From: Solobacterium sp.
Lineage (GTDB): Bacteria; Bacillota_I; Bacilli_A; Erysipelotrichales; Erysipelotrichaceae
DNA length: 64,000 nt
Assembly (NCBI GenBank): GCA_017536885.1
Contig: JAFWCM010000224.1
Coordinates: 42,013-106,012, forward strand
Direction: 5' to 3'
Positions 6,361 through 41,895 of this stretch are shown one piece after another. The notes below the pieces were generated by a model. That model was not told where the DNA came from and ran no database searches. It worked only from the letters and a program-made list of their open reading frames with translations. The translations under genes and the position numbers were made by a program. Each line of letters opens with the position of its first letter. Position 1 is the stretch's first letter.

Positions 6361-8313
6361 ATGAAAAAACGACTTTCTCCCGCAAAAGGGTTCGCATTCC
6401 TCTATTTTTCCGCAGCTTTCTTTTTTCTTTTTATGACCGATGTCAACGCCTATATCGATCCGTCGGTCATGACCTATGCGATTCAGGCGATCGCCGGCAT
6501 TGCGATTGCCCTCGGTACGGTATTCGGCATTTACTGGCGGAAGATCCGATCGGTGCTGTTTCATGACAGTTTTGATCAGAAGATCCGTGAATCGGACAAT
6601 CTGGAGTTCCGCGATCCCGCCTCTTCGGAAATACGTGCCCTGCACTTCAGTGAACAGACAGCGCAGAAGGAAGAGAAAAAACCATTCCGGGAATTCCCTG
6701 CGGCGGTGATGCTTTCCGTCGCGATGGGATTCATGCTTTGTTTCTATACGCCGCTGGAAATCTATTTCACGAACATCTTCGAGTTTGAATATGACGTCTA
6801 TGCGATCTTCCGGTATATCCTTCTGCTGTTTCTGATCGTCACCTCCGTATTGATCTCCGGGTTCTTCCTGGTCCGGCTGATTTCGAAGAAGCTGTTCTTC
6901 GGATGCGTGGTTCTGGGGCTGATCGCATTTCTCGCCTTTTACATTCAGGGCAATTTCCTGATCGGGGATCTGCCGCCTTCCGACGGCACCGAGGTCGACT
7001 GGTCGATGTTCCGTGCCCAGGAGATGCAGTCGCTGATTCTCTGGATTGCAGTGACAGCTGCCGTGATCCTGTTTGCGGTGGTATTGAAGCGGAAGAAGTT
7101 TCTGAATTTCACGAAGTTCATCACCTCCGCAATCACCGCCGTGCTGGCCGTCACCCTGGTCATCGTCTGCGTAAGAAACAACGGCCTGCAGCGCAAGACC
7201 CAGTTATGCATCAGCCATGAAGGCCTTGCGGAAATGTCCTCCGACAAAAACTTCGTGATCTTTGTCGTGGATGCGGTCGACTCGAAGACCTTCGCAGATC
7301 TCATGAACAGTGAAGACCCTTATTTCGCCGATGTGTTCGAGGACTTCACCTACTATCCCGATACATTGGCCGTCTATCCTTTTACGGTGCTTGCGGTGCC
7401 CCACATCCTTACCGGCGAGCGGTATCTCTGCCAGGATGAATTCCGCTCCTACTATACCGGGGCGATGAAGCAGTCGCCGATTCTCAGACGGCTGAAAAAC
7501 GAGAACTATGTAAGAGCGATCTACGATGTACAGGATGTCGTATTCGAGGATCCCGAATTCTTCGAATACGAAAACATCTTTGAGCGGCCCTATGGCCTTG
7601 GCAGCGCGAAGACCTTCATGCTGGATGAGCTGCGGATGGCGTTCTTCCTCTATATGCCCTATCAGCTCAAGCGCTATGAGCCCTACGCATTGTTCAACCT
7701 GCAGAATGAAAAAGCGGCCGAGTATTATTACCAGTGGTATGATCCCTGGTTCTACGATTATTTCGATGACCATAAGGTCGAGGTAAAACCGGAAAAGCGG
7801 TTCCGCTACATTCACATTGAAGGCGCTCATCCTCCCTATCGCTACAACCGGGATCTTGAGGATGTCGAAGACACCGATGAAGCTTCCTATGAAGCCAATG
7901 TCGAGGCATGCGTCACGGTGCTGGAAAAATACCTGCAGTCTCTGAAGGATTCCGGCACCTATGACAACAGCGCCGTGATCATCCTCGCGGATCACGGATA
8001 TGCGGACAAGGTCCACAGCAGCGGAAGACAGAATCCTCTGCTTCTGATCAAAGGATTCAATGAAAAGCATGCGATGCTTACTTCCGATGCGGCGATCGGC
8101 TACGATGATCTGCAGGAGATCTATCAGAATCTGCTCGACGGAAAAAGCGGCGAAGCAGTCCTTCCGGAAAATACCGGGCCGGAGCGCTCCCGCAGCTACA
8201 TCCAGTTTGAATATGATGATCTGAATCATCTTACCGAACTTGAGCTCACCGGGGCCAAGGCGGATGACTTCGAAGCACTGAAGCCCACCGGAAAAACATA
8301 TTCCAGAGAATGA
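6361..8313 (+). CDS. LtaS/EptA-like sulfatase-fold membrane phosphotransferase, paralog 1
   Basis: N-terminus: MKKRLSPAKGFAFLYFSAAFFFLFMTDVNA-YIDPSVMTYAIQAIAGIAIALGT, followed by multiple TM segments. Extracytoplasmic domain motifs: NFVIFVVDAVDS, YPFTVLAVPHILTGE and IILADHGY, NPLLLIKGF. The start was chosen by alignment to the three paralogs. Confidence 0.8.
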   Translation: MKKRLSPAKGFAFLYFSAAFFFLFMTDVNAYIDPSVMTYAIQAIAGIAIALGTVFGIYWRKIRSVLFHDSFDQKIRESDNLEFRDPASSEIRALHFSEQTAQKEEKKPFREFPAAVMLSVAMGFMLCFYTPLEIYFTNIFEFEYDVYAIFRYILLLFLIVTSVLISGFFLVRLISKKLFFGCVVLGLIAFLAFYIQGNFLIGDLPPSDGTEVDWSMFRAQEMQSLILWIAVTAAVILFAVVLKRKKFLNFTKFITSAITAVLAVTLVIVCVRNNGLQRKTQLCISHEGLAEMSSDKNFVIFVVDAVDSKTFADLMNSEDPYFADVFEDFTYYPDTLAVYPFTVLAVPHILTGERYLCQDEFRSYYTGAMKQSPILRRLKNENYVRAIYDVQDVVFEDPEFFEYENIFERPYGLGSAKTFMLDELRMAFFLYMPYQLKRYEPYALFNLQNEKAAEYYYQWYDPWFYDYFDDHKVEVKPEKRFRYIHIEGAHPPYRYNRDLEDVEDTDEASYEANVEACVTVLEKYLQSLKDSGTYDNSAVIILADHGYADKVHSSGRQNPLLLIKGFNEKHAMLTSDAAIGYDDLQEIYQNLLDGKSGEAVLPENTGPERSRSYIQFEYDDLNHLTELELTGAKADDFEALKPTGKTYSRE

Positions 8314-8554: not shown

Positions 8555-9850
8555 TTACAGCTCGTCGATCAGGGTGATGATCTCTTTGATCGGAAGAAGA
8601 CGGTCATCCACTTCCTTGGCACGATGGTATTTCAGGATATCGCGGGCGGTTTCCTGCATCGCCGGGAAGGCGCTTCTCGTCAGCTGATTTGCGTAGATGA
8701 CAATGTTCACCCCGTGCTCTGAAAGCTCTTCTTCGGTAATCGTATTGAAGCTGCTCGGAACCACGACGATCGGGGTTTTCTGATCCGTTCTGCGGAACTC
8801 ATCACAGAACGCGAGGATTTCCGCCGGATCTTTCTTCCGGGAATGAATCATGATGCCGTCGGCACCCGCTTCCACATAGGCGCGGCATCTCTTCAGTGCG
8901 TCTTCCATCCCCTGCTCGAGGATCAGGGATTCACATCTGGCGATGATCATGAAATCATCCGTCAGCTGCGCCTCCTTGCCGGCTTTGATCTTGGCGGAGA
9001 ACTCTTCGATATCCGCCTGCGTCTGTTCCACCTCGGTGCCGAACAGGCTGTTTTTCTTAAGCCCCTTCTTGTCTTCGATGATGACGGCGGAGACTCCCAT
9101 TCTTTCGAGAGTTCTGACGTTGTATACGAAATGTTCCGCAAGACCTCCGGTATCGCCGTCGAGGATGATCGGCTTGGTGGTCACTTCCATGATGTCATCG
9201 ATCGTACGCAGCCGCGAGCTCATGTCCACCAGCTCGATATCCGGCTTGCCCTTGGCGGTGGAATCGCAGAGTGAGCTCACCCACATCGCATCAAACTGAT
9301 CCAGACGGCCGTCATGTTCGACAATCGTCTTCTCGACGATCAGACCGGTGAGGCCGCTGTGGGCCTCCATGACCTTGACGATCGGCGTCATTTCAATCAG
9401 CTGTCTCAGCCGCTTTCTGCGGTATTCGGGCATCGAAAGCTTTTCGATCAGCTGCCGGTCGATTTTCTTCACGGCCGGATTATAGGTATATCCCACTTCA
9501 ATCAGCTCGCCGCCGTACGTTTTCAGAAGGTTCAGCACATTCTCGCGGATCGCGGATTCGGGCCCTTCTCTCCAGTTGTCGCCATGGATGACATAGTCGG
9601 GCTTCAGCTGTTCGATCACATGGTCATACATGATGTCATCCTGTACGATGACCTCATCCACACCCTCGAGATTCTCATACATCCGGACTCTTTCCTCCAG
9701 CGGCACCGTCGGAAAGCGGTTGAACCGGATCGCCGCCTTGTCGCTTAAGGCGCCGACTACGACGCGGCCGTATTTCTCTGCCTCTTTGATGATGTTCTTA
9801 TGTCCCTCATGGATTACGTCCGTACAGAACACGGTATACACTGTCTTCAT
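8555..9850 (-). CDS. aepX: Cytidylyltransferase (HxGH type)-phosphoenolpyruvate mutase fusion, copy 1
   Basis: N-terminal domain: MKTVYTVFCTDVIHEGHKNII...HGDNWREG. Mutase domain: AMWVSSLCDS, ILDGDTGG, VIIEDKKGLKKNSLFG, IIARCES. The ATG at 9850 is preceded by a GAGGGGGA RBS. Confidence 0.9.
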   Translation of the reverse strand: MKTVYTVFCTDVIHEGHKNIIKEAEKYGRVVVGALSDKAAIRFNRFPTVPLEERVRMYENLEGVDEVIVQDDIMYDHVIEQLKPDYVIHGDNWREGPESAIRENVLNLLKTYGGELIEVGYTYNPAVKKIDRQLIEKLSMPEYRRKRLRQLIEMTPIVKVMEAHSGLTGLIVEKTIVEHDGRLDQFDAMWVSSLCDSTAKGKPDIELVDMSSRLRTIDDIMEVTTKPIILDGDTGGLAEHFVYNVRTLERMGVSAVIIEDKKGLKKNSLFGTEVEQTQADIEEFSAKIKAGKEAQLTDDFMIIARCESLILEQGMEDALKRCRAYVEAGADGIMIHSRKKDPAEILAFCDEFRRTDQKTPIVVVPSSFNTITEEELSEHGVNIVIYANQLTRSAFPAMQETARDILKYHRAKEVDDRLLPIKEIITLIDEL

Positions 9851-9864
9851 ATTCTCAGTCCCCC

Positions 9865-11001
9865 TCAGTTTTCTGCGTAGTATACAGGCACGGCGATATT
9901 GCATGCCTTCAGTGCGTCTTTGAATACCTCAAAGAACGCTTCGATATCCGCTTCGTCAATCGCTCCCAGCGAACAGAGACGGAAGGTGTTGGCGGAGCTC
10001 ACAAACCCGGGATAAATCGTATATCCGCGCTCATAACAATAGTCGTGAAGCCGGTCGAAATTCCAGTTGGGATCATCGGGATAAACCGCCGATGAGACCA
10101 GTCCCGCCCGGATTTCGGCGGGAAGCAGCTGGCGGAAGCCGAGCTCTTCAAGGCCTTTGTTTATGGCGTTATAGACCCTTGTATGCCTTGCCCATTTGCC
10201 TTCTTCCCCTTCCTGCCAGTATTCCTTGATCGCCTGAACCAGGGCATAGATCGTCTGGACCGGCGGGGTGAAATGCATTTCTCCGGTTCTCTCGAAGAAT
10301 TCATACTGCAGGTAGAGATTGCAGTAATAGGAGCGTTTGGGATAATCCCTGCTCGCCTCGATGATCGACCGTCTTCCGATGATGAAGGAGATGCCGGTAA
10401 ATGCCATCAGGCCCTTCTGGGCACTGGCCATCAGGAAGTCGATGTTTTCTTCTTCGATATGAATCGGCCGCATCGCATAGACGCTTGTGGTGTCGCAGAC
10501 AAAGACCGCACCGTATTGATGCGCCAGGGCGCCGAGCTCCTTTGCCGGATTCAGAAGGCCGGTGACGGTTTCCTGGTAGGTCGTGTAGACCATGGCGATA
10601 TCCGGATTGTTCTTCAGGGTTTCTTCGACTTTGGCAAGGTCGGGCTGTTCGGTGATCGGGAATTTGAGATCAATGCACGGCAAGCCGTAATACATCGCGA
10701 TTTCCGCGGCTCTTGCGGAATAGTTGCCGTTGTCTACGACCAGAATCTTCTTCCCTTCCGGAAGAAGAGAGCTGATGCATACGTCGATATTGATCGTTCC
10801 GCTTCCGCAGAACAGCACGCTGGTATAGGTGTCGGGATCGCCGTGGACGATCTTTACGAGATCTTCCCGCAGACCTTTGAACAGCGAGGAGAATTCCTTT
10901 TCCCGGGGACAGATGTCGGGAACCACCTGCGCATATTTGACGGTATCCGTCGTGGTGGAAGGTCCCGGGTTCAGCAGTATTTTTCGTTCGATCTTTTTCA
11001 T
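9865..11001 (-). CDS. aepZ: 2-aminoethylphosphonate:pyruvate aminotransferase (class V, PhnW/AepZ-like)
   Basis: MKKIERKILLNPGPSTTTDTV...; a PLP-lysine-type region MASAQKGLMAFTGISF; adjacent to the PEP mutase gene. Confidence 0.85.
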   Translation of the reverse strand: MKKIERKILLNPGPSTTTDTVKYAQVVPDICPREKEFSSLFKGLREDLVKIVHGDPDTYTSVLFCGSGTINIDVCISSLLPEGKKILVVDNGNYSARAAEIAMYYGLPCIDLKFPITEQPDLAKVEETLKNNPDIAMVYTTYQETVTGLLNPAKELGALAHQYGAVFVCDTTSVYAMRPIHIEEENIDFLMASAQKGLMAFTGISFIIGRRSIIEASRDYPKRSYYCNLYLQYEFFERTGEMHFTPPVQTIYALVQAIKEYWQEGEEGKWARHTRVYNAINKGLEELGFRQLLPAEIRAGLVSSAVYPDDPNWNFDRLHDYCYERGYTIYPGFVSSANTFRLCSLGAIDEADIEAFFEVFKDALKACNIAVPVYYAEN

Positions 11002-11026
11002 GTTCTTTTCCTCATTCAGATATCGT

Positions 11027-11965
11027 TCATCCGTAGATGCCGGGGTTGTAGGACTGATCAAAGGCGCACAGTTCCCGGAAGGTATCAATTTCGGTGATAT
11101 CCTCCTGGCGGCATTCCTGTATTTTCACATGGTAGTCGTTTCGGAAGACGACCAGCGGCACCTGTTCCCAGTAGAGCTCTTTTCCGCCGGGCATCCGATA
11201 TGCCTCTTCGATATGATCGGCCAGCTTTCTGCCGTCCTCTTCATTCCAGAAGGATATGCCGACCATCTGGTAATTCTCCTCGCCCTGCCCGCCGACTTTC
11301 TCCTCGGTGATCGTTCCGTCTTTTACGGTAAAGCACCAGTCATCCGACCATGCCTTTCGGATCGCCAGAAAGTCGGAGGTATAGTGGTACCTGCGAAGAA
11401 TCTTCGGATTGGAGATCAGCAGATCGCTTTCCAGCACATAGGCGTTGGAGATCAATGTCCTGACACACAGCATTGAATAGATATTGTTGGTTTCGTTGTA
11501 TCTCTGATTCTCGATGAACCGGATCATCGGATATTTATACCGAAGCAGATCAAACTGCTCGGCAAGATATCCCCGGATGATATAGATCTCCTCAATCCCG
11601 ATCGCAAGGCAGGCATCGATCAGCCGGTCGATGATCCGCTCCCCGTTCACCCGGACCAGAGGCTTGGGGGTATTCAGCGTCACCGGCACCAGCCGCGATC
11701 CGAATCCCGCCGCAAGAAAGATGGCCCGCTTCACGCGGTAGGGTTCCAGCGCCGCAAGCCCCGAGGAAGTGATTCTTCCCTCCTGTACAAACCCCTTTGA
11801 AACCAGGGTTTTCAGTACGCGGTTGACGGTCGCCAGGGAATAGACGGTGCCTTCCTGAATCCGCCTCTGACTCATCGGCTCACTGCAGTCCGCAAGCAGC
11901 GCCAGAATTCCGAACTCTTTTTCGGAAAGCATCTCTTTCCGGTTTTCTTCGTTTCGTTCTGCCAT
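11027..11965 (-). CDS. Winged-helix (MarR-like) domain fused to a LicC/PntC-type nucleotidyltransferase
   Basis: The N-terminal ~75 aa read EFGILALLADCSEPMSQRRIQEGTVYSLATVNRVLKTLVSKGFV (wHTH-like). They are followed by AIFLAAGFGSRLVPVTLNTPKPLVRVNGERIIDRLI...NETNNIYS (LicC-family NTP-transferase). Confidence 0.8.
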   Translation of the reverse strand: MAERNEENRKEMLSEKEFGILALLADCSEPMSQRRIQEGTVYSLATVNRVLKTLVSKGFVQEGRITSSGLAALEPYRVKRAIFLAAGFGSRLVPVTLNTPKPLVRVNGERIIDRLIDACLAIGIEEIYIIRGYLAEQFDLLRYKYPMIRFIENQRYNETNNIYSMLCVRTLISNAYVLESDLLISNPKILRRYHYTSDFLAIRKAWSDDWCFTVKDGTITEEKVGGQGEENYQMVGISFWNEEDGRKLADHIEEAYRMPGGKELYWEQVPLVVFRNDYHVKIQECRQEDITEIDTFRELCAFDQSYNPGIYG

Positions 11966-12091: not shown

Positions 12092-14065
12092 TCAGTCGGG
12101 TACGAATTCATTCCCCGTCTCGTGCATGGCATCGAAGTCGCCGGCATAGCCTTCTGTTTCAAATTCCCAAATCAGCTCCGGGGTATTGAAGTTGAAGGCG
12201 AGAAAGCGCCTCTTGCGCGCCTGTCCCTCGGTAAGATCAAAGAGCTGATCGGAACTGTTACCGGCGAGCAGTTTCTGATACATCTCCTGGAAATCGATCT
12301 GGGAGATCGGAATCTCCGATGTTTCCATCGCGTGCTTTTCGCCGAAGCCCTTGATCAGAAGCAGCGGGTTGGAACGGCCTGTCAGGGCGTTGATCTCATC
12401 CTCGTCCCGGTATCCGTGATCGGCGAGGACGATGATTGCGGAATTGTCAAAGATGCCGGCTTCCTTCAGTTTGGAAAGATAATTGTGCACGATCGTGATG
12501 CTTGCCTGCACATTCTGGGAATAGGAGCCGTCCTGTGTGGAAATCTCGTTGACATCCTTGTCAAAGTGGAACGGCACATGTGCCCCTTCGAGATGGATGA
12601 ACCGGAAACACGGCTGATCCACAAAGGAGAACTCCGTCTGTTTCTGGGTGTTGTTGAACCAGATGTTCTTTCCGATAAACGGTTCCTGCTGGCCGATCGC
12701 GCGGTGCTGGATGTTTTCAAACATATCCTCATGGGAGAACAGCGGCTTGAGCGGATACGGCATGTACTGGAACCAGGTCATGTAAAAACTCTGCCGGGCG
12801 TATTCGCCGATCGAATCGAGAACATAGTGGTCATCCATGACATTGTCGAAGCGGTAGATGCCCCTGTCCGCATAGGTCAGCTGGTCCTCATACATGCCGA
12901 GCAGATACCCCTCTTCCTCCAGGGATGCCAGCAGTTTCGAGCGGTTCATCGCCCGGGTTTCAAAGACTTCGAAGTCCTCCTGGTTTTCAAACCATTCGCC
13001 AGTCAGGATAAAGGGAACTGCGTGGCTGGTGTAGGTGTAGGAACCGACGGTATTGGGAAAGTAGGTGAAATCCTCGAAATACTCCCTGTATTCGGGATCC
13101 TCGCTTTCCATAAGATCGCGGAAGATGCCCGAATCCGTCGCATCGATCATGAAGAAGATCACGTTTTTGTTTTCCGACATCACAAAGAGATTCTTCGTGG
13201 TGACGGAAGCGGAGGCCCTGGGAGTGAAGCCGTTTTTCTGATAGGCGACATTGAACAGGGTTGCGGCCATGATCAGCGTCAGAAAGACGGCGATATTATT
13301 GGCGGCCAGAAAAAAGACTCGCCGCTTCATCCGGACCGCCATCAGGACCACCAGCACTCCGACGACAAGAATCAGAACATAGGACTGCAGTTTCTGAACA
13401 CCGTACTTCGACCAGTCAAAACTGGTGCCGTCCATCGGCGGAAGTCCTCCGGCCATGAAATTGCCGTGAATGAAGCTGATGATGAGAAACGCCAGCCCGA
13501 GCGCCGTGAAGAAGGTGTAGACCGCCGGCCCAGCCTTATGCGCGATGAAATACACCAGGCTTCCGACCGCCATGCCGAAGGCAAACATGATGCCCACCGC
13601 CGGCAGGATCGAATAGATATCGTACAGAAACTCCCGCATATTGCCGAGATACAGCATCAGCGGTGAATACAGCATCCACAGAAAGCTGACCGCCAGCGTA
13701 ATCAGTATTCCGCTGCGCAGGCTGAAGGTCTTTTTCTTTTTTTCCTGACTTTTCCGGATGGAAGAAATCTCCTCGCCGGAAAGAAAGGACAGGGCACGCA
13801 GGGTGTCTCCGCTTTCGGGATCGTGAAAGACGAGATCATCGCCCGCAATATCGCGGTTTGCCTCTTCCTCTTTTCCCAGAATCACCTTCCGGATGCGGCG
13901 GCCGTAGATTCCGACTGCCGTTCCCAGCGCAATGGCGATGCCGGCGATTGCCTGGATCGCATAGGTGAGAACCGAAGGATCCACATAGGCCCGCACATCG
14001 GTCATGAACAGAAAGAAACAGCAGACGGTGAAGTACAGATAACGGAACAGCTTATCCGGCTTCAC
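12092..14065 (-). CDS. LtaS/EptA-like sulfatase-fold membrane phosphotransferase, paralog 2
   Basis: (V)KPDKLFRYLYFTVCCFFLFMTDVRA-YVDPSVLTYAIQAIAGIAIALGT; NVIFFMIDATDS; YTYTSHAVPFILTGE; IVLADHGY. The GTG start at 14065 has a GGGAGAG RBS and matches the paralog N-termini. It overlaps the upstream stop by 14 nt. Confidence 0.8.
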   Translation of the reverse strand: MKPDKLFRYLYFTVCCFFLFMTDVRAYVDPSVLTYAIQAIAGIAIALGTAVGIYGRRIRKVILGKEEEANRDIAGDDLVFHDPESGDTLRALSFLSGEEISSIRKSQEKKKKTFSLRSGILITLAVSFLWMLYSPLMLYLGNMREFLYDIYSILPAVGIMFAFGMAVGSLVYFIAHKAGPAVYTFFTALGLAFLIISFIHGNFMAGGLPPMDGTSFDWSKYGVQKLQSYVLILVVGVLVVLMAVRMKRRVFFLAANNIAVFLTLIMAATLFNVAYQKNGFTPRASASVTTKNLFVMSENKNVIFFMIDATDSGIFRDLMESEDPEYREYFEDFTYFPNTVGSYTYTSHAVPFILTGEWFENQEDFEVFETRAMNRSKLLASLEEEGYLLGMYEDQLTYADRGIYRFDNVMDDHYVLDSIGEYARQSFYMTWFQYMPYPLKPLFSHEDMFENIQHRAIGQQEPFIGKNIWFNNTQKQTEFSFVDQPCFRFIHLEGAHVPFHFDKDVNEISTQDGSYSQNVQASITIVHNYLSKLKEAGIFDNSAIIVLADHGYRDEDEINALTGRSNPLLLIKGFGEKHAMETSEIPISQIDFQEMYQKLLAGNSSDQLFDLTEGQARKRRFLAFNFNTPELIWEFETEGYAGDFDAMHETGNEFVPD

Positions 14066-16130
14066 TGTGACTCTCCCATCTCTTTTCCACCTGCGAGAAT
14101 ACCTGATCGATGATATAGCGTGCCCCCACTTCACCGCTGCTTCCGAGGTTGTACACATACTCATGCACAAATTCGTCGATCTTCGCACGGTATTCTTCCG
14201 AATGATCCAGGAGATACTGCACCTGCCCCGGCACTTCTTCCATATGATCGGGCCTGACGACGGCGCCGATCACCTCCCGCATCCAGATATTGATGGGTAC
14301 GGTGTCAATCTTCTGATATTCGGGGTTCATGACCTTCATCGGCGTGTCGATGAAGAGAACCGGTTTGCATGTCGTATATGCATACTCATAGGCGATGCCC
14401 GACCAGTCGGTGATCATGAGGTCGGCTTCAAACACCGTGGAATTGCTGGAGAAGTCGGTCTGAATCTCAATATTGGAATCGTCTTTGAACCGCTCCTTAA
14501 GCTGGTTCATCCGCTCCGGCATATGGCGCACATGCTGGGGGTGAGGACGCACGACAACCTTGTAGGAATGGCCTTTGAGCTGGTCGAGCAGTTCATCGAG
14601 GCAGGAGTCGACGATGTTGTCTTTCTGCCAGGACGGGGCGATCAGAATCGTCGTCTGATGGTCTTTCGGAAGCGTCATCCCGGCATAATCCGCACGCATG
14701 TCATCGAGCAGCGGATAACCGGTGTCGATGATTTCCTTTCGCGGCAGGTCATAGGCGATTTCCACTTTCTCCACCTCTTCCCGGTGATGCTTGCCGGTGA
14801 CGAGGACCGCATCGAAATGATCCATGGAGCCCTTGCGCATCGTCATGTTCAGCGAGTCCATGCAGTGAGGAATATAGATGTATTTAATGTCCTTGCGGAC
14901 ATAGCTGCGCTTGATCTGATAGTTTTCAAGATCCGGCATCGTCATGACCACGACATCCGCGTCCATCTTCATCATCAGAGTGATGAGGCTAGTCATATCG
15001 ATGTAGTACGGTTTGATCTGATCATTTTCCTTTGCCATCTCAAAAATCTGATCGTTCGGATCACTGGTGATATAGTGCAGCGGAATATTCGTGTACTTCA
15101 GAATAAAGTCGATCGTTCCGCGGTAATACTTGAAGAAGCCGTTGGATTCGGAGTAGAAGACAAGATGCTTGTTTCCGATCGAGAAAAAGCGTTTGTAGTC
15201 GGCTCTCGCCCGTTTGACGAGCGGGTCATTCCACTTTCTCTTCTCCTTTCCCTTCTCGAGTTCCGCAAGCTCTTTCCGGGATGCCTCGAGATCTTCGTGA
15301 TCGACATATTTCCTGGGATCGATCGCCATGTTCAGAAGCACCTGCTGGACGATCGCAAGCAGATTTGACGCAATCCAGTACAGCACAACTCCGGCTGCGA
15401 CAAAAATGCCGAGATAGACGGAAATGCCTACGGAGAATGCCATCATTCCGTATTTGTTCCAGTTGGACTGCTCGGACTGAAGGACATTGATCCGGTTCTG
15501 CGCCCAGGCCAGCAGCCAGGATGAAAGTCCGGCAAGAAGCGGAACAATCCAGGCGATGCCTCCGGTCACGGATGCGATCCAACCGAGGTTCATGCCGAGG
15601 AACGTCATGCCGAGGCTGTTTACGGCCCGGACGGATTCTTCGGAAGCTGCGGCGATATAGGCATCGGTATGTTCATTGCTCTGAATATCCTGAATCACCG
15701 CCAGTTCCAGCGAACCCGATTCGGGGTCCAGTCCGTCGACATAGTCAAGAGAGGCCGACTTCAGGGCGGCAATATCGTCTTTGGGAAGCTTCAGAATATA
15801 TTCCATGGGGTGATAGATCACTTCCACCACACCCATCAGAAGAACGATCTGGATGATCAGCGGGACAATCGAAGCCAGAGGATTGTATTTTTCCCGTTTG
15901 AAAAGCTTCTGCTGTTCTTCGGCAATCGCATCGTTGTCTCCGTAATGACGAACCTTGATCCGGTTGATCTCCGGCTGAATCCGCACCATTTTGATGGAAT
16001 TCTTCTGGACCCACACGGATACCGGAAGAAGGACAATCTTGCTGAAAACGGTAAAAAGGATGATTGCCAGTCCATAGTTTTTTGTAATGTCATAGCACCA
16101 TTTCATCACGGTGCCGAATATCTGTCCCAT
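14052..16130 (-). CDS. YidC/Oxa1-family insertase domain fused to a TagF/TagB-type (CDP-glycerol glycerophosphotransferase-like) domain
   Basis: The N-terminal ~285 aa read KNYGLAIILFTVFSKIVLLPVSVWVQKNSIKMVRIQPEINRIK..EEQQKLFKREKYNPLASIVPLIIQIVLL...VVLYWIASNLLAIVQQVLLN. The C-terminal ~360 aa carry ILIAPSWQKDN, VVRPHPQH and LMITDWSGIAYEYAYTTCKPVLFIDTP. Confidence 0.8.
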   Translation of the reverse strand: MGQIFGTVMKWCYDITKNYGLAIILFTVFSKIVLLPVSVWVQKNSIKMVRIQPEINRIKVRHYGDNDAIAEEQQKLFKREKYNPLASIVPLIIQIVLLMGVVEVIYHPMEYILKLPKDDIAALKSASLDYVDGLDPESGSLELAVIQDIQSNEHTDAYIAAASEESVRAVNSLGMTFLGMNLGWIASVTGGIAWIVPLLAGLSSWLLAWAQNRINVLQSEQSNWNKYGMMAFSVGISVYLGIFVAAGVVLYWIASNLLAIVQQVLLNMAIDPRKYVDHEDLEASRKELAELEKGKEKRKWNDPLVKRARADYKRFFSIGNKHLVFYSESNGFFKYYRGTIDFILKYTNIPLHYITSDPNDQIFEMAKENDQIKPYYIDMTSLITLMMKMDADVVVMTMPDLENYQIKRSYVRKDIKYIYIPHCMDSLNMTMRKGSMDHFDAVLVTGKHHREEVEKVEIAYDLPRKEIIDTGYPLLDDMRADYAGMTLPKDHQTTILIAPSWQKDNIVDSCLDELLDQLKGHSYKVVVRPHPQHVRHMPERMNQLKERFKDDSNIEIQTDFSSNSTVFEADLMITDWSGIAYEYAYTTCKPVLFIDTPMKVMNPEYQKIDTVPINIWMREVIGAVVRPDHMEEVPGQVQYLLDHSEEYRAKIDEFVHEYVYNLGSSGEVGARYIIDQVFSQVEKRWESHSEAG

Positions 16131-32334: not shown

Positions 32335-33611
32335 ACCGTCTTTTCTCCTTTGTTTTCTGTTTCCTCCTTCCCCGATGCCTGGCCGGCCGCATGATATGCA
32401 AGCATGCCGGCCGAAAGCCAGAAGAAGCTCGTCTCGGGGGCGGTGTGCGCCGTCCCGAGAATCGCCCGGTCGAGCATCGACTCTGCCAGCACCCCGGCAA
32501 GCAGTACGGCCTTCATCGTCCAGCCCGGCTTCTCACGGACCATCTGACGGAGAAAGAGCACCGCAAAGACCGCGATGGGAACCGTCCCGCAGAGCCCCGT
32601 CCAGAAGAGAAGGTTGAAGATGAGGTTATGGGTATCAAAGTACGTCCGGAACATGTGGGTAAAGTTCATCCATCCGTATCCGAAGATCGGACGGGCAAGG
32701 AACCCCTGCCAGGCCGAAGCCCAGTATGCGCTTCGGCCGGTGGTGAGAAACCGCAGGGTCTTCTCCGGATCCTCCCTCATCTGTTCCATCATCCCCATCA
32801 GGGCATCGTGCTTTACCGCAAAGACCAGTACCGCCCCGGCAAAGAGTCCGCCTGTGATCAGAAGACAGGCTGTCTTCGCAGAGGTTTTGCGCTTCAGAAA
32901 GCGATACAGCAGGATCAGTGCGACAACGGCGAGCTCCACCATCGAAGTTCTGACATCGAGGTAAACCACCGTGATCACGGCGATGATGATGCATACTGCC
33001 GCAAGGATCGGATTCCACTTCTTTTCTTCCAGAAGGAAGAGGCTCAATATCACGCTGAGGGCGCAGAGATTTCCGCCGTCGGCGGAATATCCGAACAGCC
33101 CGCAGAAGCGCGTCTCCTCTCCCATGTGGCCATAGGTAAAGATGCGCGATCCATCCGCAAGCCCCCCCGGCAGCGAAAGATTCATCTTATAGCATGCCAG
33201 AAGGAACAGTGATCCCGCCGCAAGAAGCACGATGAACCCGGCGCTGATCTCTGCCAGCAGGGTATAGAACTTCCGTGCACTTTCCGCGCTTTCTCTTTTC
33301 GGCAAAGAGAAGATCAGAAGAAGACTCATCACCTGCCAGAGCGAAAGCCAGGCATCGGGATTGACCTCACTGAGATTGACCAGGGTCGAAACCAGCGCTC
33401 CGGCCGCAAAGGCCAAAAGACATGCCTGCAGGTGATCCGGCCGGCGCTTTTCCTTCAGTGCTTCAGCGAAAAAAACCAGCGGCCACAGGATCGTCAGCGC
33501 CGTCAGGATCTCATTGATCCACGGAAAAAAGTGATAGATGATTCCCCGCAGAAGATACCCGATCACATAGACGAAAACATAGTTTTTCCGGTCCAGTACA
33601 AACGATTTCAT
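32331..33611 (-). CDS. O-antigen ligase/Wzy_C-family polytopic membrane protein
   Basis: 426 aa with multiple TM segments. The loop ARPIFGYGWMNFTHMFRTYFDTHNLIFNLLFWTGLCG is typical of the Wzy_C family. Confidence 0.7.
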   Translation of the reverse strand: MKSFVLDRKNYVFVYVIGYLLRGIIYHFFPWINEILTALTILWPLVFFAEALKEKRRPDHLQACLLAFAAGALVSTLVNLSEVNPDAWLSLWQVMSLLLIFSLPKRESAESARKFYTLLAEISAGFIVLLAAGSLFLLACYKMNLSLPGGLADGSRIFTYGHMGEETRFCGLFGYSADGGNLCALSVILSLFLLEEKKWNPILAAVCIIIAVITVVYLDVRTSMVELAVVALILLYRFLKRKTSAKTACLLITGGLFAGAVLVFAVKHDALMGMMEQMREDPEKTLRFLTTGRSAYWASAWQGFLARPIFGYGWMNFTHMFRTYFDTHNLIFNLLFWTGLCGTVPIAVFAVLFLRQMVREKPGWTMKAVLLAGVLAESMLDRAILGTAHTAPETSFFWLSAGMLAYHAAGQASGKEETENKGEKTV

Positions 33612-34732
33612 TTCAGATGTTTCAGATATTCCATAAAGTTCTGCTTGTTTTCCAGCGCCGTTGTCGTCGGCCGGCCAAGATCTGCCCTGGCACCGATCGA
33701 AGACATCACTTCAATCAGGGAAAGACAATGATTTTCCTTTGCCTGGCGCAGAGCTTCATCAAGCTCTTCAAAGGTTTCGGCACGCACGGCGCTTTGATAT
33801 CCGCAGGCTTTTGCGATCGCCGTAAGATCCGCAGAGCTTGCGGCCGTGGGCATTCCCCCTACCGTCTCATGCGCTTCGTTATTGATGATGATATGGATGA
33901 GGTTATCCGGGGAAACGCTGCCGATCACGGCCATAGCCCCCATATGCATGAGTGCCGCCCCATCCCCGTCGATACACCAGACGGTAGTTTCGGGTTTGTT
34001 TATGGCAGTGCCCAGGGCAATACTGGAAGCGTGGCCCATCGATCCTACCGTCAGGAAATCCCTCTCGTGGCTCTCTTTTGCCCGGGCGCGGATTTCAAAC
34101 AGTTCCCGGCTTGCCTTGCCGGTGGTGGAGATGATCGGATCACTGCCGCTGGCGGCGGTGATGTGTTCGATGATCTCTTCCCGCTTCATGGCATAGCGGT
34201 TGCGGTAGTCCACGGGTTCCGCGTAGGTCAGCGCTCCCTTGCGGATGATGAAGGCAACATCCTTTCCCTCGCCGAGAAGTGCTCTGAACTGTTCCATGAC
34301 AGTGCTCAGTTCTTCTTCGGTGGTGTCTTTTGACACGATGAAAGAGGTGACCCCCATGACATCCATCAGGCTCACGGTCACTTCCCCCTGATAGATATGC
34401 TGGGGTTCATCATGAACGCCCGGTTCCCCGCGCCAGCCGATCACAAAGATCATCGGAATCTGATAGACCTTCTCATTGAGCAGCGACGCCAGGGGATTGA
34501 TGATGTTTCCCTCGCCGCTGTTCTGCATGTATACCAGGGGCACCTTGCCGGTGGCGAGATGATATCCCGCCGCGATCGCAGTGCAGTTTCCCTCATTTGC
34601 GGCGATGATGTGATGGTTCGGGTCGATTCCGTAAGTATGCATCAGATAGTTGCACAGCGGCTTCAGCTGGGAATCGGGAACGCCGGTAAAAAACTCCGCA
34701 CCGAGAATTCGGACAAAAGACTCCGCCTTCAT
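33608..34732 (-). CDS. aepY: Phosphonopyruvate decarboxylase (ThDP-dependent)
   Basis: FFTGVPDSQLKPLCNYL...AANEGNCTAIAAGYHLATGK...VGSMGHASSIALG...CIDGDGAALMHMG...IIINNEAHETVGG, 374 aa. Confidence 0.9.
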   Translation of the reverse strand: MKAESFVRILGAEFFTGVPDSQLKPLCNYLMHTYGIDPNHHIIAANEGNCTAIAAGYHLATGKVPLVYMQNSGEGNIINPLASLLNEKVYQIPMIFVIGWRGEPGVHDEPQHIYQGEVTVSLMDVMGVTSFIVSKDTTEEELSTVMEQFRALLGEGKDVAFIIRKGALTYAEPVDYRNRYAMKREEIIEHITAASGSDPIISTTGKASRELFEIRARAKESHERDFLTVGSMGHASSIALGTAINKPETTVWCIDGDGAALMHMGAMAVIGSVSPDNLIHIIINNEAHETVGGMPTAASSADLTAIAKACGYQSAVRAETFEELDEALRQAKENHCLSLIEVMSSIGARADLGRPTTTALENKQNFMEYLKHLK

Positions 34733-35166
34733 TCTTTTTCTCCGCGCTCTTCGATCGCATGGATGATCGCGGTGGAACTGACACCCTTGGTGTACTCGGG
34801 TTCAATCACCTTGCCGCCCCACTCTGCCATGGTCGCAATCGCCTTTTCCCGGACCTTTGCCAGCGGGCCTTCTCTCCAGTCGGTTCCGTGCACCATATAA
34901 TCGGGTTTGAGTTCCCGCAGATTCGGTTCATAATCCTTGGTGATCTGCGGCACGACTTTCACGACACCCTTCATGTTTTCGATCACGATTTTTCTCTGAT
35001 CATATTTCATGTAGGGAACCCGCTTGTAGCTCGCAATCGCCTCATCGGTAAACAGACCGACAATCACGTCGCCATAGGATGCGGCGGTCTTCAGGATGTT
35101 CACGTGTCCGGGGTGAACAATGTCCGCCGCCATCGGTACATACACAGTTTTTCTTTTTTCGCTCAT
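34729..35166 (-). CDS. Stand-alone TagD/ECT-like cytidylyltransferase (HxGH type)
   Basis: VYVPMAADIVHPGHVNIL...HGTDWREG...EYTKGVSSTAII (RTxGISTT-like motif retained), 145 aa. Confidence 0.85.
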   Translation of the reverse strand: MSEKRKTVYVPMAADIVHPGHVNILKTAASYGDVIVGLFTDEAIASYKRVPYMKYDQRKIVIENMKGVVKVVPQITKDYEPNLRELKPDYMVHGTDWREGPLAKVREKAIATMAEWGGKVIEPEYTKGVSSTAIIHAIEERGEKE

Positions 35167-35172
35167 AGTCCT

Positions 35173-36474
35173 TTACTCCAGTTCATCTATCATTCGTATA
35201 ATCCTGCCGAAAGGCATCAGTTTCTCTTCCGCTTCTTCACTTCTGTGATTTCTCAGAATGCTTTCCGCCGCTTCCTGCATAGCCGGCACCGCCGCCCGCA
35301 TCAGCTGGTTGGCATAGATCACGACATTGATGCCGTGCTCCGAAAGCTGTTCCAGCCTCTCTCCGCAGAAACTTGTCGGCACCACGATGATCGGGGTGGT
35401 TTTGTCCGTTTCGCGGAAGCGGTCACAGAACTCATAGATCTCATCCGGTTCTTTCCTGCGGGAGTGAATCATGATTCCCTCGGCTCCCGCTTCAACATAG
35501 GCCCGGCACCGCTTCAGTGCGTCTTCCATCCCTTTTTCCAGAATCAGTGACTCACATCTTGCGATGATCATGAAGTCATTCGTGCGCCGGACGCTTTTCC
35601 CCGCGGATATCTTGGCACAGAACGCTTCGATCTCATCCTGGGTCTGTTCCGCCTCGGTTCCGAACAGGCTGTTTTTCTTGAGCCCCGTCTTGTCTTCGAT
35701 GATCACCGCCGATACCCCCATTCGCTCCAGGGAACGCACGAGGTATACGAAGTGTTCCTGGCGGCCGCCGGTATCCCCGTCAAAGATGATCGGCTTGGTG
35801 GTTACCTCCATCAGCTCTTCAATCGTCTGAAAGCGGCTCGTCATATCCACGAGTTCAATATCCGGCTTTCCCTTGTCAGTCGAATCGCACAGCGAGCTAA
35901 CCCACATCGCGTCAAACTGGCGGGCACCGCCCTCTTCATAGACGACGGTCTTTTCGACAATGAGTCCGGTCAGGCCGCTGTGGGCTTCCATCGCGGTGAC
36001 CACCGGCTTCATCGCAATCATCTTCTTCAGTTTGGACCGCCGCTGATCGGGAAGCGAGCTCTGATCGCGGAAATAGCTGTCCAGCTTTTTGTAGGCGGGA
36101 TTGGCGGAATAGGGAAATTCGACCAGCTCGCCGCCATAGGTCTTCAGCACTTCGATCACTTCTTCCCGTACCGGAGAGAGAACGCCTTCCTTCCAGTTGT
36201 CCCCATGAACGACATAGTCGGGCCGGTATTTCAGCAGGTTTTCCCGAAAGCTCAGCGTCTTCTGGGGGACGATGGTTTTCACTTCCTTCAGATCTTCGAA
36301 GATCTTTTTGCGCTCCTGGTAGTCAAGAAGCGGAAAGCGTTTATAGCTGGCGACGGCCTCATCCGTAAACAGACCGATCATCACATCACCAAGCCCTGCC
36401 GCGTTTCTGATGAGATTGATATGACCGCCGTGAAGGATGTCTGTGCTCACCGCGACATAAACTGTTTTTGACAT
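35173..36474 (-). CDS. aepX: Cytidylyltransferase (HxGH type)-phosphoenolpyruvate mutase fusion, copy 2
   Basis: MSKTVYVAVSTDILHGGHINLI...HGDNWKEG, then AMWVSSLCDS, IFDGDTGG, VIIEDKTGLKKNSLFG, IIARCES. By eye, long runs of the mutase domain are identical to copy 1. Confidence 0.9.
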   Translation of the reverse strand: MSKTVYVAVSTDILHGGHINLIRNAAGLGDVMIGLFTDEAVASYKRFPLLDYQERKKIFEDLKEVKTIVPQKTLSFRENLLKYRPDYVVHGDNWKEGVLSPVREEVIEVLKTYGGELVEFPYSANPAYKKLDSYFRDQSSLPDQRRSKLKKMIAMKPVVTAMEAHSGLTGLIVEKTVVYEEGGARQFDAMWVSSLCDSTDKGKPDIELVDMTSRFQTIEELMEVTTKPIIFDGDTGGRQEHFVYLVRSLERMGVSAVIIEDKTGLKKNSLFGTEAEQTQDEIEAFCAKISAGKSVRRTNDFMIIARCESLILEKGMEDALKRCRAYVEAGAEGIMIHSRRKEPDEIYEFCDRFRETDKTTPIIVVPTSFCGERLEQLSEHGINVVIYANQLMRAAVPAMQEAAESILRNHRSEEAEEKLMPFGRIIRMIDELE

Positions 36475-36509: not shown

Positions 36510-38117
36510 TCACTTGACGAGATACGATTTCATTTCCTCATAATTCCGGAAGCTGTAAACCCGGTGGTTTTCAGTCTCATAGATCAGATGATCTTCCGGA
36601 AGGAGCTGCTTGTTCTGATAATAGTGATAATCCTTTCCGGAAAATAAGGCAAATACCTTTCCTTCCGGGATATATCCGTTATGGGAGATGACCTGGCCCC
36701 AGGGTTCCACATCGGTGATCACATGTTCATTCATCTTGTTGTGTCCGAAGAACCAGATCTGCATCTCAATATCGCCGTCCGCAAGTTCGGTAAGAACATT
36801 CGCTTCCCAGAATCCGGAATACCCGTAGGTATAACCCTGCTCCTTCAGAAACGCCGCCAGAGGAGTGCGGTCCTCCGCTTCATAGTCCAGGAGGCATGCG
36901 TTTCTCTGATAACGGTATTCCAGCATGCCTGCCCCAATCATCATCAACAACAGCGGTGTCACTGCAAAGACGGTCCGGTTGGAAAACCAGTGCGCTTCAT
37001 GAATCCAGAGGGCGATCAGAAACCACACAAAGACAAGCAGAGTGAGATTGTAGCGGTCGAAATAGGACATATCCGAAAACCCGTACAGAAGCAGGAAGAG
37101 CATCAGCCCGAACAGAAAGAATACCGTCATGCTGTAATAGGTCCGGGAGACCCAGGCAGAATTCTTCAGGGCATACACAATCGCAAAGACCGCAAGCAGG
37201 AAGACGATTCCGGCGACCACATTGCTGATCAGGGATTTGGCAGTCACCTCTCCGATTCTAAAGCCGAAGGAATTCAGAAATCCGTTGATGGTTTCAATGA
37301 AGCGGTCCAGATTGAACCCGGTGAACTTGAATCCCCATCCCATAAAGGAGAAATACTTTGTCAGAACGATCTGATTGAAAAGATACCCAAGTCCCCCGGC
37401 CAGAAGATCGAGAAATGTGATCGTGCAGAGACGAAGCGCCGTCACTTTTTTGAGGGCGGGACGGCCGGTGTAAAGCAGAAGATAAAAGAACATCGCCGTA
37501 AGCGCCGCCGGCAGATACACACTGAGCATCTGCCGCAGTCCGACAGCACAGGTCAGAAATGCAATCACAAGAGACAGAATCAGATACAGTAGGTTCTTTC
37601 CCTTTCCCGAATCTGCCGTATATCCCGCCATAAACCCCAGGCCCAGAAAGGAAAGGATCACGCTGGGCGTATAATGCCCGGCCCAAAGGACAATGTAGTA
37701 ATAGTCATCGGAGATCGGCGTCAGGACCAGAAGCGCAATCAGCGGAAAGAGCTTTGAAATCCTGATTTGACGGGTCAGAAACCAGAGACTTGCCAGCAGG
37801 ATCACGTGAATGATGACTACGGAAACCAGGCGGACCATGCGCCAGTTCTGTATAAAGCGGAACACCAGGGAATAGATCAGGGTCGAATGAAGAATACGGA
37901 ACTCGGAGGAATAATACCAGTTCGTGGAATAGATTCCGTTGCCCTGGGAGAGAATCTTCCCGAGCAGAAGCTCGCTTGATTCATCCGAGCCGATCAAAAG
38001 ATTCATGTATTTGTTCAGAAACCAGAAAAAATACAGTTCCATCACAGCCAGGAGAAACAGGATCACCCAGGTCCCGTATTTTTCTCCGAATTGTCTTATC
38101 TTATCCGTCTTTCCCAT
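36510..38117 (-). CDS. GT-C-like polytopic membrane protein, paralog family member 1
   Basis: MGKTDKIRQFGEKYGTWVILFLLAVMELYFFWFLNKYMNLLIGSDESSELLLGKIL...WYYSSEFRILHSTLIY. More than 10 TM segments plus a C-terminal soluble domain (GYTYGYSGFWEANVLTELADGDIEMQIW). An AAAGGAG RBS is present. Confidence 0.55.
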   Translation of the reverse strand: MGKTDKIRQFGEKYGTWVILFLLAVMELYFFWFLNKYMNLLIGSDESSELLLGKILSQGNGIYSTNWYYSSEFRILHSTLIYSLVFRFIQNWRMVRLVSVVIIHVILLASLWFLTRQIRISKLFPLIALLVLTPISDDYYYIVLWAGHYTPSVILSFLGLGFMAGYTADSGKGKNLLYLILSLVIAFLTCAVGLRQMLSVYLPAALTAMFFYLLLYTGRPALKKVTALRLCTITFLDLLAGGLGYLFNQIVLTKYFSFMGWGFKFTGFNLDRFIETINGFLNSFGFRIGEVTAKSLISNVVAGIVFLLAVFAIVYALKNSAWVSRTYYSMTVFFLFGLMLFLLLYGFSDMSYFDRYNLTLLVFVWFLIALWIHEAHWFSNRTVFAVTPLLLMMIGAGMLEYRYQRNACLLDYEAEDRTPLAAFLKEQGYTYGYSGFWEANVLTELADGDIEMQIWFFGHNKMNEHVITDVEPWGQVISHNGYIPEGKVFALFSGKDYHYYQNKQLLPEDHLIYETENHRVYSFRNYEEMKSYLVK

Positions 38118-38139
38118 ATTCTCTCCTTTTACCTTTGGA

Positions 38140-40062: not shown

Positions 40063-40207
40063 GATCCGGATTCCTTTTTCCCTGCGGGTTCTGTTCCACA
40101 TCTCTTAACGTACAACATTATATCCCAATCATTTGAAAATCCCACGCCGAGTTCTCTTTTTTGATTCGTACACTGCCTTTGGGATTCTCGCTCTCTGTAG
40201 GGGCATA

Positions 40208-41841: not shown

Positions 41842-41895
41842 GCCTGTTCTCTCGTAAAAGCAAACAGGCTTTCTGCCGGGTGAATGTGTATGATA

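Follow-up and report, generated by a model that had tools for sequence, protein, structure and literature searches.

The LtaS and LtaP enzymes of Staphylococcus aureus and Listeria are built from five N-terminal transmembrane (TM) segments and an extracellular domain of the alkaline-phosphatase superfamily. The same plan is found in four paralogous proteins that Solobacterium sp. (Erysipelotrichaceae), a gut or rumen bacterium, encodes in a stretch of 64,000 nucleotides (GenBank assembly GCA_017536885.1, contig JAFWCM010000224.1, positions 42,013 to 106,012 of the forward strand) that is referred to here, as a whole, as the window. Compared with LtaS and LtaP, only the C-terminal 100 residues of the paralogs align; the paralogs add an N-terminal module and a cytoplasmic hairpin, and they are linked to a gene for a YidC-TagF fusion protein and to genes for cytidylyl activation instead of to the use of phosphatidylglycerol. 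Another LtaS-family enzyme, GacH of the streptococcal rhamnose polysaccharide, reportedly takes glycerol phosphate from phosphatidylglycerol and is said to have no YidC, TagF or small-protein partners. It is likewise encoded in a wall-polysaccharide locus and reportedly adds a phospho-head group (glycerol phosphate) to a glycan outside the cell (bioRxiv 10.1101/337519), which makes it, by description, the closest functional analogy.

The N-terminal module itself recalls the M13 procoat and Pf3 coat proteins, with which it shares a leader with an AxA site, an exposed loop that is short and acidic, a single helix as anchor and basic residues at the cytoplasmic end; like M13 procoat, the classic YidC client, it is tied to YidC (here a paralog) and to signal peptidase I. 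There is no sequence relation between them, and the module is cellular and tied to glycan-modifying enzymes, not to a phage coat. A second comparison is offered by the systems GtrA/B/C, CsbB-GtcA-YfhO and ArnC-ArnEF-ArnT, in which a carrier is loaded in the cytoplasm, flipped and used for transfer outside the cell. The system proposed here would follow the same logic with different parts, namely a TagF-type phosphotransferase, a YidC-like domain, a procoat-like protein and an LtaS-like transferase, the carrier lipid being conjectural. Taken together, the gene set points to an undescribed multi-part machine that decorates surface sugars, in which a procoat-like helix, processed by signal peptidase, probably couples each outward-facing phosphotransferase to a single YidC-TagF protein. 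The module and its multi-part system are absent from the Pfam and NCBIfam libraries and from the searchable literature.

The four open reading frames (ORFs) lie at 6361..8313 (+; paralog 1, 650 amino acids (aa), consisting of the module, five TM segments and a sulfatase-fold domain), 12092..14065 (-; paralog 2, 657 aa, with a GTG start), 38140..40062 (-; paralog 3, 640 aa) and 43558..45516 (+; paralog 4, 652 aa), and their coordinates and strands were confirmed as the earlier, sequence-only reading of this DNA had given them. Identity to paralog 1 in the alignment is 39, 42 and 43%; a quick tree puts paralogs 1, 3 and 4 together in a single clade and places paralog 2 with another gene adjacent to YidC-TagF. 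All four begin with a basic-hydrophobic leader of 24-30 residues ending in V-x-A, followed by (A)Y(I/V)DPSV(M/L)TYAIQA(I/L)AG, a hydrophobic stretch, a basic cluster and the loop L.F.DP.....R. The leader occupies 6361..6450 (+) in paralog 1 (30 aa, VNA/Y) and 13988..14065 (-) in paralog 2 (26 aa, VRA/Y), and the helix that follows occupies 6451..6522 (+; YIDPSVMTYAIQAIAGIAIALGTV) and 13916..13987 (-; YVDPSVLTYAIQAIAGIAIALGTA), respectively. Leader and YIDPS helix together span 39919..40062 (-) in paralog 3 (leader 24 aa, VQA/AY) and 43558..43713 (+) in paralog 4 (leader 28 aa, VKA/AY). The invariant run comprises A30, Y31, D33, P34, S35, V36, T38, Y39, A40, I41, Q42, A43, A45 and G46. Thus the leader with an AxA-like site and the YIDPS-type helix are as first noticed; of the loop motif L(E/V)F.DP..G..R read at the same time, L81, F83, D85, P86 and R92 are invariant, and the Gly is missing from paralog 1 (DPASSEIR).

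The ORF of paralog 1 stays open further upstream, to 6238, and paralog 3 has an alternative upstream ATG at 40101. One gene call for paralog 1 (P0005, 626 aa) begins at the internal Met of MTDVNAYIDPS (window 6361-6435), 24 codons past the homolog-supported ATG at 6361, and so has the leader cut off.

The helix is the best conserved part of these enzymes. Sixty homologs, which share 24-53% identity with paralog 2 and include members from other bacterial families, were aligned, and residues 26-48 proved to be the most conserved 23-residue window of the whole protein. Their mean majority fraction is 0.89; the next-best window, at the DHG metal site, reaches 0.72, the catalytic domain 0.49 and the leader 0.42. 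Of the 30 invariant columns, 9 fall in residues 26-42. Whichever two paralogs are compared, synonymous differences are present at 7-10 of the 24 motif codons; selection therefore acts on the peptide and not on the DNA, and the likeness does not stem from recent gene conversion. Six-frame translation of the window's genome gives 43,844 ORFs with 40 aa or more, and a hidden Markov model (HMM) of the four N-termini matched just these four proteins among them (E 7e-48 to 2e-42; next 0.4). The two strong Sulfatase-family (PF00884) ORFs found elsewhere in that genome (C244 and C139) gave no match to this HMM, and since they do not carry the module it is not a general feature of LtaS homologs; the remark that canonical LtaS and EptA proteins start differently therefore holds. 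Nor did any of the 399 other genomes of a phylum-wide sample, 5 of them from the same genus and 48 from the same family, encode the module, which is therefore not a lineage-wide trait.

The leader has the marks of a signal peptide. Among 211 distinct leaders, taken from fused and small forms, every one combines a basic n-region and a hydrophobic h-region with small residues at -1 and -3, so that the (-3,-1) site of AxA type is kept in 211 of 211. The site stands directly before the Tyr in 182 leaders, one residue earlier in 27 and at both places in 2; Ala occupies position -1 in 202 leaders, Val (107) or Ala (64) occupies position -3 in 171, and position -2 varies freely. The leaders have a median length of 28 aa, an uncharged run of 18 and a net charge of +3. 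They look like genuine substrates of signal peptidase I, cleavage itself being a prediction. A C-terminal sorting signal was not indicated: the module is N-terminal, and the sole match, PVV-CTERM in one small protein, reached 14.1 bits against a cut-off of 27.

The module also exists on its own. Its residues 1-75 match 942 proteins shorter than 357 aa, most of them complete at 84-97 aa (range of the stand-alone protein, 73-118 aa), which consist of the leader, the AYIDPSVMTYAIQAxAG helix, a KKK cluster and the tail GIDENKNKEVESDDI. An exhaustive profile search gave 1392 cluster representatives at E<=1e-3; among the 136 representatives newly listed in it, 84 have at most 150 aa and 34 have 541-760 aa. 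When 120 full-length homologs among the matches listed were inspected, 114 fitted the motif pattern, one had YSDPS, one had been called from inside the motif and four (551-569 aa) lacked the module. Pfam and NCBIfam hold no model for it (the module and five stand-alone proteins, searched with E up to 10, gave sub-threshold and mutually inconsistent matches), Atlas names its clusters 'hypothetical protein' only, and the peptide YIDPSVMTY is absent from the searchable literature. The alignments show that the N-terminal module is a fused copy of a stand-alone small membrane protein. The sequence-only reading had missed both the stand-alone protein and its constant YidC-TagF companion.

In a scan with one genome per species, 332 places encode the module, and 78 loci (57 of the small type, 21 of the fused type) were taken for comparison. 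The fused form occurs mostly in Solobacterium, Bulleidia and other Erysipelotrichaceae, and the small form in Lachnospiraceae, Oscillospiraceae, Christensenellaceae, Eubacterium and unnamed Bacilli. Two proteins joining the module to other domains were not accepted as architectures, each having a single representative: P0280 runs into a histidine-kinase ATPase domain (HATPase_c) and P0360 into a xylose-isomerase-like triosephosphate isomerase barrel (AP_endonuc_2). In both, the small protein can be read to its end or almost so, acidic tail included, ahead of the foreign domain, and they are probably chimeric or stop-loss gene calls.

The constant companion of the module is encoded at 14052..16130 (-) in the window, directly upstream of paralog 2, which overlaps its stop by 14 nucleotides (nt). 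It joins a YidC/60KD_IMP core (aa 19-267) to a TagF-type Glyphos_transf domain (aa 434-659). The family match (PF02096, 119 bits against a cut-off of 35), the fold and the positive charge of the groove are those of a YidC/Oxa1 insertase; E. coli YidC matches the protein at E 2e-15, and structure 6al2 aligns over 270 columns at 20% identity. Homologs in related loci are 45-81% identical. An ordinary YidC is encoded on another contig of the same genome, and YidC-TagF is therefore an extra, specialised copy. A literature search pairing YidC with glycerophosphotransferase returned only unrelated papers.

Wherever a small module ORF of at least 80 aa was found, YidC-TagF lies on the same strand (55 of 55 loci), and the gap between the two genes is at most 100 nt in 46 of the 55, typically a 4-nt overlap; a module-less core is also present in 39 of them. 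Among fused-type loci, 15 of 21 have YidC-TagF within 8 kb. The two also go together genome by genome. Among 201 genomes from the family to which locus L038 belongs, 10 have the module and the identical 10 have full-length YidC-TagF, with no discordant case; TagF-only proteins occur in 6 other genomes, all without the module. Enzyme cores are found in 9 of the 10 module genomes and in 2 further genomes (G478 and G564), which have neither module nor YidC-TagF. The description of G478 as having TagF and core without YidC was rejected, its locus having a diverged YidC domain fused straight to the core.

These proteins are joined to one another in several ways. The four paralogs of the window combine module and core. 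At four loci core, YidC and TagF form one protein of about 1200 aa, followed by the small gene, and a single representative, P0299 (1326 aa), carries YidC, TagF, module and core in one frame. The module of P0299 (residues 657-739) has its 'MKK...' leader intact, and the protein is either a real full fusion or the product of a lost stop codon. At least 80 proteins of 770-1014 aa fuse YidC directly to the core with no module; examples are L083 5414-7777 (in G478) and P0413-P0494, mostly annotated as 'YidC/Oxa1 family membrane protein insertase'. No one fusion event can be put forward as the origin of the fused state, a quick FastTree tree of 63 rows requiring at least five changes between fused and unfused states, two or three of them forced by well-supported branches. 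The comparisons show a conserved gene set of small protein, YidC-TagF and module-less core, whose members are fused in several combinations.

A fourth gene often joins the set. Of the 57 small-type loci, 37 include, within the YidC-TagF/small-protein operon, a short gene for signal peptidase I, usually just after the small gene; the products match TIGR02227 at 87-108 bits (cut-off 47). In L015, L023, L026, L031 and L057 the enzyme has 146-199 aa.

A possible contact between module and YidC domain can be named. Residue K31 of YidC-TagF is invariant in 55 of 55 sequences and aligns with R366 of E. coli YidC, which we take to be the groove charge that attracts the acidic residues of clients; the Asp of YIDPS is invariant and is the sole exposed acidic residue of the module. 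In the family that fuses YidC to the core, the position of the groove Lys is occupied by N, S or T in all 67 aligned rows (15 more are gapped). This distribution fits a pairing of the groove Lys with the module Asp. Complex prediction for YidC-TagF and the module, made with custom alignments, gave 0.53 (runs of 0.54, 0.53 and 0.38), as compared with 0.00 for the best of three controls; at least 30% of the contacts agree among the runs, and the partner has a predicted local distance difference test score (pLDDT) of at least 48. Among solved complexes, 116 of 157 attain the mark applied, as do 2 of 215 mismatched pairs, and passing scores no higher than 0.60 comprise 18 of those solved complexes and both mismatches, so that the prediction lends weak support to binding between the two.

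The enzyme core belongs to a known superfamily. PF00884 (gathering cut-off 25 bits) is reached by paralogs 1-3 (25.2, 37.0 and 36.7 bits), and paralog 4 falls slightly short (24.8); the NCBIfam equivalog for LtaS (NF053595, cut-off 970 bits) scores 18.4-19.9 bits with paralogs 2-4 and does not match paralog 1 at E<=0.1. The AlphaFold2 model of paralog 2 (pLDDT 89.4, predicted TM-score 0.78) starts with two helices, that of the leader (3-19) and a long one (30-70), and continues with a small beta-hairpin (79-90), five TM helices (117-141, 150-178, 180-203, 218-245 and 248-276), with which hydropathy concurs, and a sulfatase-fold domain (285-657), i.e., the five TM segments and extracytoplasmic domain of LtaS/EptA-type phosphotransferases. 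Its best full-length Foldseek matches, at 11-14% identity, are LtaP and the likewise five-TM, sulfatase-fold enzymes PbgA/YejM, EptA and MCR-1 (6xlp, E 4.8e-12; 5fgn, 5.7e-9; 9nww, 7.3e-9), the last three with TM-scores of 0.26-0.35 (0.26-0.30 for 5fgn) and with no counterpart of the module. VIA-align matches the model to the periplasmic domain of YejM and to many sulfatases alike, with a Z of about 21. Because it aligns full-length PbgA from model residue 112 on, the first 110 residues or so are, according to the model, an addition to a standard enzyme of five TM segments and one domain, which agrees with the early remark on unusual N-termini. VIA-align failed to rank LtaS, EptA and PbgA above plain sulfatases, all having a Z of about 20-21.

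By sequence, the best match of known structure is S. aureus LtaS (2w5q, E 5.8e-7), on whose LTNHYPF and GDHYG the motifs IHxEGAHxPF and DHG fall. Residues D308, T346, H491, H496, D549 and H550 are invariant in the 60 homologs, the roles of the Asp and the Thr being placed by motif only. Of the sulfatase motifs first described as intact in all four paralogs, DHG(Y/F) is exact; the xDAxD motif opens with V, I, M or L, and YPFT replaces Y.YT in paralog 1. An N-terminal TM family specific to EptA/MCR, which we take to exist as a separate Pfam entry, was not listed for any paralog at E<=0.1. On these comparisons the four enzymes are remote LtaS-like members of the alkaline-phosphatase superfamily.

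The following mechanism is proposed. Each enzyme would be an outward-facing LtaS-like membrane phosphotransferase with five TM segments, an extracellular domain and a Thr nucleophile, to which is fused a procoat-like part made of leader, short exposed (A)YIDPS turn, one TM helix, basic cluster and acidic tail. The leader would be inserted as a hairpin and removed by signal peptidase I, leaving the Tyr at the outer face, and the near-invariant helix would bind the YidC-like domain, possibly with the module Asp meeting K31 of the groove. In the cytoplasm, the TagF-type domain would load a head group activated by cytidine mono- or diphosphate (CMP or CDP) on a membrane-bound carrier, probably from CMP-aminoethylphosphonate here and from CDP-choline or a CDP-amino-alcohol in other loci. 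The YidC-like groove would then move the carrier to the outer leaflet, where the LtaS-like domain would hand the head group to a surface glycan. The need for one YidC-TagF to fit all four modules would explain why the module is near-invariant among enzymes whose catalytic domains are about 40% identical. That E. coli YidC scrambles phospholipids in vitro is described in a recent report (bioRxiv 10.1101/2023.09.01.555937). It is possible, and we put it forward tentatively, that the YidC-like domain, the matured YIDPS helix and the LtaS-like enzyme form one complex in which an Oxa1-family groove, plugged or gated by the helix, is a dedicated flippase for the lipid-linked phospho-head group made by TagF.

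Several observations weigh against coupling of the enzymes to YidC-TagF through the module. Three of the four window paralogs are not adjacent to YidC-TagF, and 6 of the 21 fused-type loci have none within 8 kb. G576 has five module-less cores and a single small module gene; the cores share this one gene, and a one-to-one covalent adaptor is therefore not required. G477, which has module and YidC-TagF, shows no core match at E<=1e-25, and the YidC-core fusions manage without any module, which is dispensable there. Just 1 of the 21 fused-type loci has a signal peptidase I gene of its own, and the window's genome (3.4 Mb) holds one signal peptidase I that passes TIGR02227, outside the window; cleavage in this organism would fall to that single housekeeping enzyme or may not occur. 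The module block is the least confident part of the paralog 2 monomer model (pLDDT 51-81), the complex score is a weak pass with no interface reported, and the Lys/Asp correlation contrasts essentially two lineages. As to the mechanism, we infer its binding and its chemistry; its lipid carrier and its acceptor are conjectural, as is the step of scrambling. CDP-glycerol and CDP-ribitol are the established donors of TagF-type enzymes, which are not known to use CMP-aminoethylphosphonate.

Some of this evidence could be read in another way. The module might serve the LtaS-like core itself by lining the site of the lipid donor or carrier, the YidC domain and signal peptidase merely inserting and maturing it. 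This arrangement would suit the fusion of module and core seen at 21 loci and in each of the four paralogs of the window, a fusion that is topologically simple, the C-terminal tail of the module and the N-terminus of the core both being cytoplasmic, and a conserved ligand could account for the invariance. Yet the small gene almost always stands at the end of the YidC-TagF gene, within 100 nt in 46 of 55 loci, and not beside the core, which can be several kb off. Moreover, module and YidC-TagF co-occur in 10 of 10 genomes, whereas cores occur without either in G478 and G564 and, fused to YidC, without the module in at least 80 proteins. This account is thus unlikely.

Still less probable is that the module is no more than a generic topogenic device, combining a cleavable signal peptide with an additional anchor, that has no specific partner and is conserved by shared ancestry. 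The leaders do have the features of any Sec/YidC signal peptide in length, charge and uncharged run (values given above). A generic anchor, though, is not expected to be the most conserved segment of its protein (0.89, where the leader has 0.42 and the catalytic domain 0.49), nor to exist as a free-standing gene with no enzyme attached, nor to track YidC-TagF from genome to genome.

The small protein or module might itself be the acceptor or a head-group shuttle, modified on an exposed Tyr, Ser or Thr much as pilin is by PptA; in its favour, the hydroxyl residues at the outer end of the helix (Y27, S31, T34 and Y35 in the numbering of paralog 2) are invariant. Sulfatase-fold transferases that modify proteins do exist, PptA and EptC being examples. 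A substrate fused to each of four enzymes would be odd, a protein shuttle would be stoichiometrically costly, and the loci are rich in glycan synthesis genes, all of which makes such a role very improbable. That the shared sequence is kept at the DNA level, through gene conversion or as a recombination site between inverted paralogs, has a negligible probability: the paralogs do lie in both orientations within 40 kb, but their codons differ synonymously at 7-10 of 24 places in every pair and the same peptide recurs in homologs of other bacterial families at 24-53% overall identity.

The neighbouring genes bear on the head group. The minus-strand operon runs, in order, through GDP-fucose genes, an unknown ORF, YidC-TagF, paralog 2, a helix-turn-helix (HTH) and LicC/PntC-like nucleotidyltransferase gene (11027..11965, -; homologs in 41 of 78 related loci), a class-V aminotransferase gene resembling the aminoethylphosphonate (AEP) transaminase (9865..11088, -) and a gene in which a cytidylyltransferase-like domain is fused to phosphoenolpyruvate (PEP) mutase, PepM (8555..9904, -). 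Directly upstream of YidC-TagF, at 16226-17485 (-), is a 419-aa ORF with no TM segment and no family, which has one weak homolog (23%) in related loci. A second operon begins with paralog 3 and includes the gene of a 9-TM membrane protein that fits no known family (36510..38201, -) and, downstream of paralog 3, a second phosphonate set of three genes (33608..36474, -), namely a PepM fusion (35173-36474, -), a TagD-like cytidylyltransferase (34729-35166, -) and a thiamine-pyrophosphate-type (TPP) decarboxylase (33608-34732, -). Both PEP mutase genes (8555-9904 and 35173-36474) have an N-terminal cytidylyltransferase domain of the TagD/ECT type (PF01467).

Because paralogs 2 and 3 lie in operons with PepM genes, AEP is a reasonable head group here, and CMP-AEP is probably the donor used in the window. 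The sequence-only reading had proposed AEP from a lipid donor as the head group of several acceptor-specific transferases; this is plausible for the window, and PepM linkage as a general feature was rejected, PepM being found in 6-7 of the 78 loci. Other loci have cytidylyltransferase-choline kinase fusions with a BCCT transporter, or fusions of a cytidylyltransferase with a CobD-like decarboxylase. The latter are proteins of 600-620 aa in which a LicC-type nucleotidyltransferase is joined to a CobD-like pyridoxal-phosphate enzyme (threonine-phosphate decarboxylase-like, below cut-off), at L015 2563-4395, L026 8440-10242, L038 8905-10767, L057 2449-4278, L031 8265-10082 and L029 6123-7970; their composition suggests a CDP-amino-alcohol head group. 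To judge from gene content, the common denominator of the loci is a cytidylyl-activated small head group. The main text of a phosphonate paper (PMC6697681) makes no mention of sulfatase, TagF or YidC.

The 9-TM protein next to paralog 3 has two paralogs of 9-10 TM segments directly upstream of paralog 4 (40243-41841 and 41884-43494, +), so that the trio (532-563 aa, 36-39% mutual identity) flanks paralogs 3 and 4. No Pfam family reaches its cut-off with any of the three, and the 78 related loci hold no homologs; an Atlas feature search matches clusters in which 10-15% of the members carry PMT_2. Of the phosphonate or glycosyltransferase C (GT-C) neighbours described at first, the PepM operons are thus borne out, and the GT-C label is a weak lead. 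On the whole, the initial observation was confirmed and its interpretation is partly supported.

The window's assembly (G000) has 3.4 Mb in 316 contigs, and five sampled genomes of the same genus have 1.3-2.0 Mb. The contig does not look mis-binned, since the GroEL encoded next to paralog 1 clusters with metagenome-assembled genomes of Solobacterium sp. and on one Solobacterium contig a homolog of paralog 1 is encoded three genes away from GroEL.

Head groups are known to be added either by LicD-type enzymes inside the cell or by LtaS/EptA-type enzymes that use a phospholipid head group outside, and the gene set described here suggests a further route. It offers pairings that can be tested, i.e., small protein with YidC domain, groove Lys with module Asp, and leader with locus-encoded signal peptidase, and it provides a natural system in which to ask whether moving lipids can be the main job of a YidC fold, a question raised by the in vitro scrambling data. 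For annotation, a context could be given to about 1400 cluster representatives of a small protein or module that has no name, and many genes labelled 'YidC/Oxa1 family membrane protein insertase' in reality join YidC to a surface-modifying enzyme. The way in which the host, phages and antimicrobial peptides recognise gut bacteria is shaped by zwitterionic head groups carried on teichoic acids and wall polysaccharides, namely phosphocholine, phosphoethanolamine and aminoethylphosphonate. If the groove of YidC-TagF does act as a dedicated flippase, this would be the first insertase fold recruited to export a cell-surface building block, and the gut and rumen Firmicutes would have a new and widespread route for placing choline phosphate, amino-alcohol phosphates or aminoethylphosphonate on their wall glycans.

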